From: Lysobacterales bacterium
GTDB lineage: Bacteria > Pseudomonadota > Gammaproteobacteria > Xanthomonadales > SZUA-36
NCBI GenBank assembly: GCA_041584255.1
Contig: JBFHEJ010000001.1
Span: forward strand, 1-27,799
DNA length: 27,799 bases
Direction: 5' to 3'
Position 1 is the first letter of the stretch; every line of letters starts with the position of its first letter. Positions 20,820-27,172 of the stretch are shown piece after piece. Both the position numbers and the translations under genes were made by a program. The notes below the pieces were generated by a model, which made no database searches, was not told the DNA's origin, and saw nothing but the letters and a program-made list of their open reading frames with translations.

Positions 20820-22277
20820 TCAGCGGGATTTCTTGAGCACGCCGAGCAGGCCGCGCATGATCTCGCGGCCGAGCATGGAACCCATCGAGCGCAGGGTGCT
20901 CTTGACCATCGCTTCGCTGGGTGACTGACGTGAGCTCTTGCGTGCTGCTTTCTTTGCCGGGGTCTCGCCGGACTTCTCCAGCTCCTTCGCTATTTGCTCG
21001 GCACGGGCCTGCAGTACCTCGGCGGCCGACTCACGATCGAGCGGCATGTCATAGCGGGTGCCGACCGGGCTGCGGCCGCGCACCTCGTTGAATTCCTCCT
21101 CGCTTGCCGGTCCGATTCGTGACGTCGGTGGCCGAATCAGCGTGCGGTCGACGATACCCGGGATGCCTTTCTCCTGCAGGGTGGACACCAGGGCCTCCCC
21201 CACGCCGAGCTGCGTGATGGCTTCCTCGACATCGAGATTGGGGTTGCTGCGGAAAGTCTGCGCCGCGGCGCGCACCGCCTTCTGATCGCGGGGCGTGTAG
21301 GCGCGCAACGCGTGCTGGATGCGATTGCCGAGTTGCCCCAGCACGCTGTCGGGAATATCGAGCGGGTTTTGGGTGACGAAAAACACGCCCACGCCCTTGG
21401 AACGGATCAGGCGAACGACCTGCTCGACTTTCTCCAGCAAGGCGCGCGGCGCGTGGTCAAAAAGCAGGTGGGCCTCGTCGAAGAAAAACACCAGCTTGGG
21501 CTTGTCGGGGTCGCCCACCTCCGGTAACTCCTCGAACAACTCCGAAAGTAGCCACAGCAGGAAAGTCGCATAAAGCCTCGGATTGTTGATCAGCGAATCG
21601 GAAGCCAGTGCATTGATCACTCCGCGCCCGTTGAGGTCGGTGCGCAGCAGGTCGGAAAGCTCCAGAGCTGGTTCGCCGAAAAATTCCTCGGCGCCCTGGT
21701 CTTCCAGCACCAGGAGGCGCCGCTGGATGGCGGCGACGGAGGCCGGACTGACGTTGCCATACTGGTGGGAGAGCGTTTTTGCGTTCTGTGCCACGAAACG
21801 CAGCAGGGCCTGCAGGTCTTCGAGATCGAGCAACAGAAGGCCGTCCTCGTCGGCCACGCGGAACGCGATGTTGAGCACGCCCTCCTGCGTGTCGTTGAGT
21901 TCCAGCAGGTTGGCCAGCAGCAGCGGACCCATTTCGGAGATCGTCGTGCGGATCGGATGACCCTTGATGCCGAACAAATCCCAGTAGACCATCGGCCAGC
22001 TGGTCGGGGCGAAGTCCGGGATGCCAATTTTTTCCAGGCGCTCGTCGATCTTGGGATGCGGGCTGATGGGCTGGCTGAGGCCGGACAGATCGCCTTTCAC
22101 GTCGGCCAGGAAAACCGGCACGCCGATGCGCGAGAATCCTTCCGCCAGCACCTGCAGTGTTACGGTCTTGCCTGTGCCGGTTGCCCCGGTGATCAGGCCG
22201 TGTCGATTGGAGTAGCCAGGCCGCAGCCATTGCTTCTGTTCACCTTTACCAATCAGGATGGGAGATATTTCACTCAC
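20820..22277 (-). CDS. DUF853/YjgR-family HerA-like P-loop ATPase
   Basis: GTG 22277 with SD AAGAGG; [19 protein letters not shown] (Walker A), [20 protein letters not shown] (Walker B), [32 protein letters not shown]. Confidence 0.9.
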
Positions 22278-22375
22278 GGCGGACGCCTCTTTTTTATAGC
22301 GGTACGGTCGGTTAAGCTTCCGGACTTTCCTTGCGCCTTCCCGGGCCGACGAAGATAACCGAGCCAGAGTAACCA

Positions 22376-24994
22376 ATGGAGCAACAGGCCTACAAGCCCA
22401 GCGAGATCGAAATCCAGGCGCAGCAGCGCTGGGATGACAGCGGTGCGCACAACGCCGACGAGGAAGGGCCGGGTGAGAAATTCTATTGCCTGTCGATGCT
22501 GCCGTACCCCTCCGGCGCCCTGCACATGGGCCATGTACGCAACTACACCATCGGCGACATCGTCAGCCGTTTCCACAAGATGCAGGGCAAAAACGTCCTG
22601 CAGCCGATGGGCTGGGACGCGTTCGGCCTGCCGGCGGAAAATGCCGCGATCAAGAACCAGACAGCGCCTGCCAGGTGGACGCGCGAAAACATCGCCCGCA
22701 TGCGCGGGCAGCTCAAGCGCCTGGGCTTTGCCTATGACTGGCGGCGTGAAGTCACGACCTGTGATCCCGATTATTACCGTTGGGAGCAGCAAATGTTCAC
22801 GCGCCTCATGCGCAAGGGCCTGGCCTATCGCAGGGACGCCGAGGTCAACTGGGATCCTGTCGACCAGACGGTACTGGCCAACGAACAGGTGGTTGATGGG
22901 CGAGGCTGGCGCTCGGGTGCTGTGGTCGAACGCAAGTCCATACCCCAGTGGTTCCTGAAGATTACCGATTACGCCGAGGAGCTGCTCAACGGGCTGGATG
23001 ATCTCGAGGGCTGGCCTGAAGCCGTCAAGATCATGCAGCGCAACTGGATCGGTCGGTCCGAGGGCATCGATTTCGTCATGCCGATTTGTGACGAAAAAGG
23101 CCGACCCGACCCTCCGGGGCGCACTGTCGAAGTATTCACGACACGCCCCGACACCGCCTTTGGAATGACCTACGCGGTGCTGGCGCCAGAGCATCCCCTG
23201 GTGGCGCAAGTGACCAGTAACGAGCAGCGCAGCGTCGTGGAGGCGTTTGTTCAGAATGTGAAGAAGGCTTCCGAGGCGGACCGCCTGACCATCGAAGCCG
23301 GCAGCGCCGCGATGAGCAAGCGCGGCGTCTTCACCGGCGCGTACGTGGTCAATCCCTTCAACCGCAAGCCGGTGCCGCTCTACATCGCCGATTATGTCCT
23401 GATGGGCTACGGCACGGGCGCGATCATGGCCGTGCCGGGCGAGGACGAGCGCGATTGGGTTTTTGCCACGGCGCACGATCTTCCCATTATCCGTACCGTT
23501 CAGCCCCCCGAAGACTGGGAAGGCGGCGCTTTCACCGACGAGGGGCCGAAGATCAACAGCGACTGGCTGGACGGCCTGGACATCGATGAGGCCAAGAGTA
23601 AGGCCATCGAATGGCTGGAAGGTGAGGGCATCGGCAGCCGCAAGGTCAATTACCGGCTGCGGGACTGGGGAGTCAGCCGCCAGCGCTACTGGGGCTGTCC
23701 CATCCCCGTTATTTACTGCGATGCCTGCGGTGCCGTGCCGGTACCGGATGATGAGCTGCCGGTGGTGCTGCCCGAGGACGTCACCTTCATGGGCGTGCAG
23801 TCGCCGATCAAGGCCGATCCCGAGTGGCGCAGGACGACATGCCCCGAATGCGGTGCAGATGCCGAGCGGGAAACCGACACCTTCGACACCTTCATGGAGT
23901 CGTCTTGGTACTACGCGCGTTATTGTTCACCCGGCGCGGACGCCATGATCGACGACCGCGCCGAGAAGTGGTTGCCGGTCAACCAGTACATCGGCGGCAT
24001 TGAACACGCCATCCTGCACCTGATGTATTTCCGCTTCTATCACAAGCTGTTGCGTGACGCGGGCATGGTGTCTTCTGACGAGCCTGCCACGCGCCTGCTG
24101 TGCCAGGGGATGGTGGTGGCCGAGACCTACTATCGTGATGGCGATGCGGGCGGCCGCGTGTGGATTCACCCCGACGATGTCGAGGTCAGCCGTGACGACA
24201 AGGGCAGGGTGACGGGCGCCACGCTGAAGAGCGACGGCAGGCCGGTGGAGATTGGCGGCGTCGAGAAAATGTCCAAGTCGAAGAACAACGGCGTCGATCC
24301 CAGGGGCCTGGTCGACCGTTACGGGGCCGACACCGTGCGGCTGTTCTCGGTTTCCGACTCGCCGCCCGATCAGTCGCTCGAATGGTCGGAAGCCGGCGTC
24401 GAGGGCGCCCACCGGTTTCTCAAGCGGGTTTGGTTCCTGGTTCAGCAGCATGCCGCCGCCGGGCCAGGCCCCGAACTCGATCGCGAAGCTCTGGACAAGC
24501 AGCAAAAAGACATGCGGCGTCTCGTGCATGACGCCATCGCCAAGGTGGGCGACGATGTCGAACGACGGTTTACCTTCAACACTGCAGTGGCCGCCATCAT
24601 GGAATTGTGCAATCACCTGTCCCGTTTTGACGACGACAGCGCGCAGGGGCGCGCCGTTCAGCAGGAGGCCTGGCTGGCCATCGTACGCATGATCTGGCCC
24701 TTCACGCCGCACATCAGCGAGGCGCTGTGGGCGGTTCTGGGGCAGACCGATGACATTGCCGTGGCTGGCTGGCCGGCGATCGATGAATCCGCGCGGGTCA
24801 GGGAACAGATCACCCTGGTGGTGCAGATCAACGGAAAACTGCGTGCCCGCCTCGACACACAGCCGGGCGTCAGCAAGGACGAGGTGCTGGCCCAGGCCCG
24901 GGCACTCGACAACGTGCAGCGACACATCGAGGGCAAGGAGGTCCGCAAGGTCATCCATGTGCCGGACCGGCTGCTGAATATCGTCGTCGGCTGA
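22376..24994 (+). CDS. leuS: Leucine--tRNA ligase
   Basis: [13 protein letters not shown] (HIGH motif), TTRPDT editing motif, [29 protein letters not shown]. Confidence 0.98.
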
Positions 24995-25494
24995 TGCATC
25001 GTGGCCTGATGAAACGGATTTCCGCATTGCTGCTGGCTTCAATCATGCTGACCGGCTGTGGGTTCCAGCTGCGCGATCGTGCCGACCTGCCCCCGGAAAT
25101 GGCGCAGACCCACCTCGTGGTGGAAGGGGAGTACAGTGCCCTGGCCCGCCGCCTGCGCGTGCTGCTCGAACAGAGCGGGGCGGTGTTGGTGGGTCCGGAC
25201 CAGGCCCTTTCCATTCTCGAAATTCCGGTCAACCGGGCGGTGACCGAAGTACTGACCATCGGCGACAATGCGCGCGTGCGCGAGTACCGTGTCAGTCATA
25301 CCGTTGAATTCCGTCTGCTCGACGCTTCGGGCACCGAGATCATCCCCATGCAAACGTTGCGTCAGACGCGCGAGATTTCCTTCGACGAGCAGGAAATCCT
25401 CGGTGACACGCGCGAGCAGGAATACATGCAGCGAGACCTGGCCAACACCCTCGCCCGGCTGATCCTGCGGCGGCTCGAGGGTTCAGGGGACTGA
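24994..25494 (+). CDS. lptE: LPS assembly lipoprotein LptE (start 24994 or 25009)
   Basis: Lipobox MLTGC-GFQLR; leuS-lptE-holA order. Confidence 0.9.
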   Translation: MHRGLMKRISALLLASIMLTGCGFQLRDRADLPPEMAQTHLVVEGEYSALARRLRVLLEQSGAVLVGPDQALSILEIPVNRAVTEVLTIGDNARVREYRVSHTVEFRLLDASGTEIIPMQTLRQTREISFDEQEILGDTREQEYMQRDLANTLARLILRRLEGSGD

Positions 25495-25495
25495 G

Positions 25496-26527
25496 GTGCC
25501 GATCCGCCTCGCACAGCTGCCCCAGATGCTGGCGCAGTCAATCGCGCCTGTCTACCTGATTGCCGGTGCAGAACCGCTGCTGGTGCAGGAAGGTCGCGAG
25601 CGCGTGATCCACGCCGCCGGGGACCAGGGATTCGAAGAGCGCCAGCTCATCGTCGTCGATCGCAAATTCAGTTGGGACAGCGACCTCGGCGCGGCGGCGG
25701 CGCCGTCGCTGTTTGCCCGGCGCAAGGTCATTGATCTGCGGCTTGCCAGCGGCAAGCCGGGCAAAAGCGGCGCGCAGGTGCTGACCAAGTGGGCGGAAGA
25801 TCCCGATCCCGACACTGTTTTGGTGCTGTCATTCGGCGGTTGGGACGCGGCTTCACGCAAAACCAAGTGGGCCCAGGCGCTCGACCGGGCCGGCGTTTTG
25901 GTCGAGGTGTGGCCGCTCAAGCCCGAGGAACTTCCCGGCTGGATCAATCAACGGCTGAAGGCGGCGGGGCTGGATGCCGACCGCGAGGCCGTGGTCATGC
26001 TGGCGGAGTTGGTCGAGGGCAACCTGTTGGCTGCCCAGCAGGAAATCGACAAGTTGGCTCTGATTGCTGCGGGACGCCCCCTCAGCGCGGCGGATATCGA
26101 GAAGGCGGTGGCCAGCAGCGCCCAGTTCAGTGGTTTTCGGCTGGCCGAATGCGCCCTGCGCGGTGAAGCGGAAACCAGCCTCCGGGTGGCGGCGGGACTA
26201 TTGCGCAACCATGTTGCGATTCAGCCGGTCGTGGCGGCCTTGTACAACGAGCTGGTGCTGACACGGGCGCTGCTCGAGGTGCGCGAGGAAGGAGGGGACG
26301 AGCGAAGTTTTTTCAGCCGCGCAAGGGTCTGGCCGCAGCGACAAGCGCCGATGAAAATGGCGGCGCAGCGGCTGCGTGCTGCCGATATGGACCAGGCTTT
26401 TCATCTTCTCGCCAGGATCGATCTCCAGGGCAAGGGTCGGGCGCCCGGCGACCCCTGGCGCACGCTCGATGCGCTCCTGATGTTGCTTTGTCGGCCCCGG
26501 GACCGGCTGCTTCAGGCGGAAGCCTAG
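25496..26527 (+). CDS. holA: DNA polymerase III subunit delta
   Basis: PVYLIAGAEPLL, SLFARRKVIDLR, VEGNLLAAQQEIDKL, D...KG...GDPW..L; conserved position. Confidence 0.95.
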   Translation: MPIRLAQLPQMLAQSIAPVYLIAGAEPLLVQEGRERVIHAAGDQGFEERQLIVVDRKFSWDSDLGAAAAPSLFARRKVIDLRLASGKPGKSGAQVLTKWAEDPDPDTVLVLSFGGWDAASRKTKWAQALDRAGVLVEVWPLKPEELPGWINQRLKAAGLDADREAVVMLAELVEGNLLAAQQEIDKLALIAAGRPLSAADIEKAVASSAQFSGFRLAECALRGEAETSLRVAAGLLRNHVAIQPVVAALYNELVLTRALLEVREEGGDERSFFSRARVWPQRQAPMKMAAQRLRAADMDQAFHLLARIDLQGKGRAPGDPWRTLDALLMLLCRPRDRLLQAEA

Positions 26528-27172
26528 ATGCCGACTCGCGGCGCAATCGGCATTTTTGGCGGCACCTTCGACCCGGTTCACTTCGGACACCTGCGGGCTG
26601 CAACTGAAGCGTTCGAGAAGCTGCCCCTGAACGAATTTCGGCTGCTGCCGGCAGGAGCTCCGCCGCATCGATCGCAAACCTGGGCCAGTGCAGACGATCG
26701 CCTCGCCATGCTGCGGCTGGCGGTCGATGAGTACGACGACCTGGTGGTCGATGACCGTGAAGTGCGCCGCGAGGGATTCTCGTACATGGTCGACACCCTG
26801 GCGGAAATACGTGAGGAGGAAGGCGATGCGCCGCTGATCCTGATGGTTGGCCAGGACGCGGTCAATCAACTCGACAGCTGGCACCAATGGCGCAGGCTGT
26901 TCGACCTCGGGCATCTTGCGGTGATGCGCAGGCCCAAATCGAACCACGTTTACTCCGGCGAACTCTTTGAGGCCCTGCAACCGCGCCTCGTGGACGATGC
27001 CGCCGCCCTGCAGCGTGCACCGCATGGCCTGGTTTTGCCGCTGGAAGTCACGCAGCTGGAGATCTCCTCCACCGGCATTCGGACGCTGATCAGGGACGGC
27101 CGTTCACCGCGGTTCCTGCTGCCCGAGGCGGTCATTCGCTACATCGAGGAGCGCGGCCTGTATGCGAACTGA
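26528..27172 (+). CDS. nadD: Nicotinate-nucleotide adenylyltransferase
   Basis: IFGGTFDPVHFGHL, PAGAPPHR, SYMVDTL, VGQD...WHQW, EISSTGIR. Confidence 0.97.
   Translation: MPTRGAIGIFGGTFDPVHFGHLRAATEAFEKLPLNEFRLLPAGAPPHRSQTWASADDRLAMLRLAVDEYDDLVVDDREVRREGFSYMVDTLAEIREEEGDAPLILMVGQDAVNQLDSWHQWRRLFDLGHLAVMRRPKSNHVYSGELFEALQPRLVDDAAALQRAPHGLVLPLEVTQLEISSTGIRTLIRDGRSPRFLLPEAVIRYIEERGLYAN

Follow-up and report, generated by a model that had tools for sequence, protein, structure and literature searches.

A leucyl-tRNA synthetase with a CP1 domain of foreign type

The window analyzed in this study is a 27,799-nucleotide stretch of DNA from a Lysobacterales bacterium and represents one entire contig of the metagenome-assembled genome (MAG) G000, which is 76% complete and consists of 321 contigs. 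It carries a complete leuS gene (22376..24994, + strand) for leucyl-tRNA synthetase (LeuRS), an essential enzyme whose CP1 domain protects the genetic code from norvaline and isoleucine and is the target of benzoxaborole antibiotics. We found this LeuRS to be a mosaic, in which a body of native gammaproteobacterial type holds a CP1 editing domain of Acidimicrobiia type. Very probably, the CP1 domain of the resident leuS was replaced through recombination in an ancestor of the window's own family (f1) and most of a neighboring family of the same order (f8). The preliminary description of this DNA had suggested a foreign CP1 domain for positions 23065-23650, corresponding to aa 231-425 of LeuRS, and had set the partition into CP1 and body that was used below.

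The leuS product (872 aa plus stop codon) matched TIGR00396 (leuS_bact) with 1076.4 bits, thus passing the curated cutoff of 548.4. Pfam domains comprise tRNA-synt_1, the LeuRS editing domain PF13603 (aa 222-415, E=3.5e-56), and an anticodon-binding domain. Both class I motifs are present, with HMGH spanning aa 50-53 and KMSKS spanning aa 631-635. These and the other motif strings quoted in the preliminary description (RNWIGRSEG, TTRPDT, a 15-residue editing-site string, and VNYRLRDW) were all located in the translation.

To compare the parts of the enzyme, leuS was taken from 30 relatives of the window genome and aligned. For eight LeuRS that belong to this order but to other families, identity to the window enzyme was 63-74% in aa 1-225 and 55-78% in aa 426-640, versus just 34-38% in CP1 (aa 231-423). 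The earlier impression that this CP1 is unlike the E. coli type thus holds far beyond chance. The flanks had been called typically gammaproteobacterial, and both these body identities and the nested position of the body within the order, described below, agree with that. In the same alignment, the window's CP1 type was common to 17 f1 genomes and one f8 genome, with CP1 identities of 60-77%. A sliding comparison of 20 residues, using the eight same-order LeuRS and the six best foreign CP1 matches as reference sets, revealed that the nearest group changes at aa ~221-240 and changes back at aa ~421-430.

This behavior is also reflected in the comparison with solved structures. The whole LeuRS scored higher with 6q89 (1057 bits), the Neisseria gonorrhoeae enzyme, and with 3zgz/4aq7 (1041 bits), those of E. 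coli, than with 1h3n (804 bits). For CP1 alone the order was reversed, with 142-159 bits for 4k47, 3o0a, 5agr, and 1h3n, while 6q89 reached only 108 bits and 3zgz only 100 bits.

CP1 and body follow different phylogenies

Two CP1 trees, a quick tree of 129 rows and a careful tree of 59 rows with bootstraps, agreed with each other. In the careful tree, 19 other gammaproteobacterial CP1s formed one group (support 100/100) on a long stem of 0.6-1.0 changes per site. The swapped CP1s of f1 and f8 had short branches and were monophyletic (97/90), and this monophyly supports one common origin for the imported CP1. They were placed inside a clade (98/94) together with four Acidimicrobiia MAGs and MAGs of Actinomycetota, Rokubacteria, Dehalococcoidia, and Thermoanaerobaculia. 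The next branch outside this clade was another Acidimicrobiia MAG (L070; 99/95). The actinobacterial, Acidimicrobiia-like affinity that had been proposed is therefore borne out by this clade, in which four Acidimicrobiales MAGs are joined by four further ones with the same CP1 type.

The body tree was built from 71 rows and all sequence outside aa 230-424. Here, f1 grouped with the f8 row L018 (Shimodaira-Hasegawa-like approximate likelihood ratio test [SH-aLRT] support, 96) and was nested in same-order clades (96 and 97), which in turn were nested in a clade comprising every class member (100). Acidimicrobiia-type enzymes formed their own clade (99) outside the class clade.

The conflict between the two partitions was evaluated by approximately unbiased (AU) tests. 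When f1 and f8 were constrained to group with five same-order sisters, as in the body topology, the CP1 data rejected this arrangement with a log-likelihood difference of 190 (p-AU 4.9e-52). Conversely, the CP1 topology was rejected by the body data with a difference of 450 (p-AU 5.2e-36; 40 rows, LG+G4, a weaker model than a mixture model). Separate trees, which the preliminary description had named as the decisive check, are thus strongly incongruent, and each topology is rejected by the data of the other partition. Together, these results support an intragenic domain swap and hence the mosaic that had been proposed.

Distribution of the mosaic LeuRS

To determine how widespread the swapped CP1 is, 150 genomes from 12 families of the order were searched with CP1 as the query. 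The outcome was bimodal, without intermediates. CP1 identity was 60-75% in 17/17 genomes of f1 and 11/15 of f8, and 37-48% throughout the 118 genomes from the remaining ten families. Among the remaining f8 genomes, G393 and G401 harbored a gamma-type CP1 and two others gave no match. The bodies of the LeuRS from G393 and G401 (L141 and L142, respectively) were 67-68% identical to that of the window, compared to 66-68% for other f8 members, whereas their CP1 reached 36% versus 60-65% in swapped f8 members. The well-supported branches are compatible with, but do not prove, a gain that occurred once and was followed by neither reversal nor allele transfer. Elsewhere in the class, no mosaic CP1 was detected among ~288 matched genomes of 300 from ~240 families, the best identity being 47%. 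This sample includes the unpublished genomes G068 and G324, both ordinary, and no claim depends on either.

Inspection of the same region in close relatives, as had been advised, therefore points to a shared, ancient replacement and not to a feature of one genome. The mosaic also occurs in genomes assembled as one contig, such as G003, and in the cultured Elongatibacter sediminis, the latter with 70% identity to the window in CP1 and 63-79% in the body regions. E. sediminis belongs to Wenzhouxiangellaceae in the NCBI taxonomy, the named database matches of the clade are Xanthomonadales/Lysobacterales MAGs, and f1 is probably Wenzhouxiangellaceae.

No second leuS match was found in the 76%-complete MAG G000. 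In another f1 MAG (G015, 3% contamination), a second partial LeuRS-like frame was observed on a small contig (G015:C109:37-1338). It is 51% identical over aa 308-581 and could derive from a contaminating contig or represent another leuS copy.

Breakpoints coincide with invariant motifs at the domain borders

The native N-terminal catalytic body comprises aa 1-221 (22376..23038, + strand, as are all segments of the gene) and is assigned by its identities and by the body tree. It is followed by the left junction RNWIGRSEG (aa 222-230, 23039..23065). The residues before this motif (GWPxxVKTMQ) are of the gamma type, while those directly after SEG (AEFxM-like) are of the Acidimicrobiia type, so that the pattern in the alignment switches here and the crossover is placed inside the motif. 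The foreign CP1 domain, as judged from identities, CP1 trees, and the AU test, extends over aa 231-423 (23066..23644). At the right junction, VNYRLRDW (aa 424-431, 23645..23668), the pattern switches back. The 12 residues before it are donor-like, and the 13 residues after it are gamma-like, compared to L[IV]SRQR in the donor type. The native C-terminal body (aa 432-872, 23669..24994), assigned by identities and the sliding comparison, contains the remainder of the Rossmann fold, the leucine-specific domain, KMSKS, and the anticodon-binding and C-terminal domains. Neither junction motif varies among the bacterial LeuRS of this alignment. Judging from the alignment, the breakpoints are localized within aa 222-230 and aa 424-431, and the exchanged piece appears to be the structural CP1 domain together with its linkers.

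It should be noted that the window enzyme and gamma-type LeuRS share a leucine-specific insertion preceding KMSKS (aa ~580-630, nt ~24113-24265), which is entirely gapped in Acidimicrobiia-type enzymes.

Within CP1, the signatures that are common to the window and the donor type are a 16-letter motif with an insertion of two residues, ADYVL, and PG[QE]D where the gamma type has PGHD. The column of the PGHD histidine (aa 355, 23438-23440) is occupied by Q or E in every swapped CP1 and every CP1 of Actinomycetota/Planctomycetota type, and by His in every gamma-type and Bacillota CP1 examined. The Thr-rich editing motif TTRPDT (aa 255-260, 23138..23155) is conserved in every aligned row; its role is assumed here from established LeuRS enzymology, the E. 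coli residues being T247, T248, and T252. The 15-residue editing-site motif at aa 346-360 (23411..23455) has conserved Asp residues and carries E for the His of PGHD. TTRPDT and the D-x-R-D motif are kept in all swapped copies. The retention of the editing Thr and Asp residues, as read originally from the window alone, thus extends to all swapped copies. Since the Thr-rich and Asp/Arg/Asp motifs are intact, the editing chemistry is presumably unchanged.

Candidate sources of the CP1 domain

A search for donors was performed with the CP1 alignment as the query against one genome per species. At least 600 stretches were matched, with 80 named loci among the matches listed. Among these, the best non-relative was a Dehalococcoidia MAG (L061), the CP1 of which was 62% identical to that of the window by BLASTP. 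It was followed by a Thermoanaerobaculales MAG (L062, 60%), a Rokubacteria MAG (58%), an Actinomycetota MAG (57%), and two Acidimicrobiales MAGs (56% each). The bodies of L061-L066 were less similar to the window: their N-terminal and central regions reached 53-57% identity, and their C-terminal region 33-39%. Acidimicrobiia-type LeuRS matched aa 1-221 of the window enzyme with 53-55% identity. Searching a representative library with CP1 yielded mostly fragments, and the nearest CP1s from outside the family were ~45-55% identical. No closer donor was recovered by a deep CP1-restricted protein search, in which the 120 matches listed were all of the f1/f8 type (60-99% CP1 identity). One protein in this search, P0153 (ENA, 722 aa), scored 408 bits, near the self match, although its best BLASTP alignment showed only 60% identity; the protein may contain a frameshift or a duplication.

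The clade that holds the swapped CP1s is a polytomy, which besides Acidimicrobiia contains single MAGs labeled Dehalococcoidia, Thermoanaerobaculales, and Rokubacteria. Across the Acidimicrobiia-type LeuRS set (L063, L064, L068, L070, and L071, and also L061, L062, L065, and L066), CP1 was 55-62% identical to that of the window in most members and 52-54% in L068 and L071. These enzymes resemble the window LeuRS in their CP1 clade and signature motifs. They differ from it by bodies of 33-57% identity that have no leucine-specific insertion and fall outside the gammaproteobacterial clade.

Composition and selection

A compositional trace of the import was sought, but none was detected. GC content was 0.629 in the CP1 segment versus 0.617 and 0.639 in the flanks, and GC3 was even along leuS (0.790 in CP1 versus 0.799 and 0.810 in the flanks). 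The absence of an anomaly is expected of an ancient, ameliorated event. Ratios of dN/dS were 0.09-0.17 in CP1 versus 0.04-0.18 in the body, with dS close to saturation, a point that counts among those gathered below against the replacement. Because GC3 is uniform, dN/dS is low, and the editing motifs are kept, we infer that the swap is old and that CP1 is held by purifying selection.

Probable replacement of CP1 by recombination and alternative explanations

The explanation best supported by these results is homologous or microhomology-guided recombination with a transiently acquired foreign leuS. In the common ancestor of f1 and most of f8, part of a leuS from an Acidimicrobiia-type lineage, or from another carrier of that CP1 type, would have recombined into the resident gammaproteobacterial gene. 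Exactly CP1 (aa ~231-423) would have been replaced, with crossovers inside RNWIGRSEG and VNYRLRDW; as these motifs are invariant, the hinge to the Rossmann fold would have stayed intact. The hybrid would then have been fixed as the sole LeuRS of the cell and inherited vertically under purifying selection. It should act as an ordinary LeuRS, with the native body activating leucine and charging tRNA-Leu, and the imported CP1 would hydrolyze mischarged tRNA-Leu. Recombination as the mechanism and the direction of transfer are the most plausible reading of the trees and junctions.

Several points weigh against this explanation. The CP1 data accept all class members including f1 as one group (log-likelihood difference of 13.7, p-AU 0.245), and therefore CP1 alone permits the f1/f8 type as sister of the long-branched gamma type. 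The stricter nested constraint derived from the body tree was used after this class-wide constraint had passed, and the AU groups were fixed after the first trees had been seen, although the CP1-versus-body partition was set beforehand. In the order-level body tree, G393 and G401, which have gamma-type CP1, are weakly placed (81-83) among the swapped members. The donor searches recovered no close candidate, the best being 62% identical among the matches listed, and the labels of the donor clade derive from MAG taxonomy alone. Finally, post-transfer editing and aminoacylation by the hybrid are predicted from motifs, dN/dS, and the lack of another LeuRS match.

The acceptance of class-wide monophyly would suit an ancestral retention, in which f1 and f8 keep the original CP1, the long-branched E. 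coli-type CP1 is derived, and no transfer took place. The very long stem of the gamma-type clade is in line with this, as is the membership of Acidimicrobiia-type and gamma-type bodies in the same large LeuRS subtype (SH-aLRT 100). Simple retention is ruled out, however, because f1 and f8 are nested within the order. Their bodies lie several supported nodes deep in order and class, their genome taxonomy is of the same order, and forcing this nesting on the CP1 data carries the cost of 190 log-likelihood units. Moreover, retention, which we consider improbable, would require separate origins or separate spread of the derived CP1 in no fewer than 10 sister families and ~240 other families. We regard it as still less probable that a vertically inherited f1/f8 CP1 merely came to mimic the actinobacterial type by accelerated or convergent evolution. 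CP1 is indeed less conserved than the body in ordinary vertical pairs (e.g., 59% versus 67% and 65% versus 74%). Nevertheless, such a domain would have to reach 56-62% identity to one foreign clade while falling to 34-38% with its sisters, and to rebuild shared indels and signature motifs. In addition, the change of type is abrupt where the domain begins and ends, dN/dS of CP1 is ordinary, branches in the swapped clade are short, and the AU test rejected the body topology on CP1 data.

An equally slight chance is given to the reverse direction, in which this CP1 type arose in f1/f8 and was exported to Acidimicrobiia and other phyla. The poor internal resolution of the 23-row clade, an open polytomy, leaves room for it. 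However, the swapped clade is nested, with L070 outside it and a wider clade that is mostly Actinomycetota; the Acidimicrobiia enzymes are coherent in both body and CP1 trees, and PG[QE]D is common to all Actinomycetota-type CP1s. A chimera created during assembly or binning of this MAG, or the import of a whole gene, has a negligible probability. The fragmented and incomplete state of G000 would make a chimera conceivable, and read coverage had been proposed as a check. Instead, a chimera is excluded by replication, since the same mosaic with the same junctions is present in at least 28 independent genomes of two families, including single-contig assemblies and the cultured isolate. Against whole-gene import, the body is native both by its tree and by the genes downstream of leuS.

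Genes flanking leuS

These downstream genes are lptE, holA, and nadD (24994..27172, + strand), located 3' of leuS and assigned by NCBIfam matches. The gene order leuS-lptE-holA is typical of Gammaproteobacteria, and import of leuS as a whole is therefore disfavored. Just upstream of leuS, a 518-aa open reading frame (ORF) on the opposite strand (20820-22376, -) resembled DNA-translocating ATPases of the HerA/CedD/VirB4 type only weakly, with E values of 1e-12 to 1e-6 and scores well short of the curated cutoffs. An assignment of this ORF as lnt was dropped, as NCBIfam returned the weak HerA/VirB4-like ATPase matches instead.

Comparison with known mosaic genes and implications

In architecture, length, HMGH, KMSKS, and leucine-specific and C-terminal domains, the window LeuRS is like the enzymes of 4AQ7/3ZGZ and 6Q89. 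It is unlike them in that its CP1 is of another lineage, with different indels and PG[QE]D, not PGHD. Whole-gene horizontal transfer of aminoacyl-tRNA synthetase genes is commonplace. In full-text literature searches, no description of a natural CP1 replacement between bacterial phyla was found. A related case is provided by NmLeuRS1/2 of the haloarchaeon Natrialba magadii, in which an archaeal C-terminal tRNA-binding domain is combined with a bacterial N-terminal region including CP1 (Fang et al. 2014, PMC4005665). As in the window, these are natural LeuRS with domains of different origins, which are explained by transfer and subsequent fusion or recombination (PMC4005665). Unlike NmLeuRS1/2, the window LeuRS has a nested internal CP1 exchanged between two bacterial phyla, with both flanks native. 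Mosaic genes formed by partial horizontal transfer, such as penA alleles of Neisseria (PMC10926701; methods, PMC3241670), are likewise essential resident genes into which intragenic recombination has brought a foreign stretch. Such cases are recent and involve close species and near-identical DNA, whereas the leuS swap is cross-phylum, ancient, fully ameliorated, and domain-sized.

A similar discordance was noticed among the foreign carriers of this CP1 type. L061 and L062 are 73% identical in CP1 but only 52% in the body; for L062 and L066, the values are 68% and 53%, respectively. In ordinary vertical pairs, by comparison, CP1 identity equals or falls short of that of the body. The body of L061 groups with the Dehalococcoidia LeuRS L130 (SH-aLRT 95), the CP1 of which is located elsewhere in the CP1 tree. 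The body-tree group L061+L062+L069+L130, which was chosen post hoc, was rejected by the CP1 data (p-AU 0.0025). These discordances hint at transfer of this CP1 type on more than one occasion. It is conceivable, though we hold it to be rather unlikely at present, that CP1 is an exchangeable cassette and that the Acidimicrobiia-type CP1 was installed independently in the LeuRS of several phyla. If true, repeated replacement would indicate recurrent selection on editing, for example by norvaline stress or natural editing-site inhibitors, and CP1 would be functionally portable between distant LeuRS bodies.

A successful natural transplant of CP1 between phyla, cut at the hinge motifs, suggests that the editing module can be exchanged while viability is kept. 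Effects of the swap on norvaline/Ile proofreading or on benzoxaborole sensitivity, as raised in the preliminary description, are a matter of speculation. The natural chimera and its sister taxa with native CP1 offer material for studying the communication between editing and synthetic sites. They also serve as a warning that phylogenies based on a single aminoacyl-tRNA synthetase gene, and predictions of resistance, can be confounded at the domain level. For the lineage itself, the swapped CP1 represents a clean shared-derived marker of the Wenzhouxiangellaceae-like clade.

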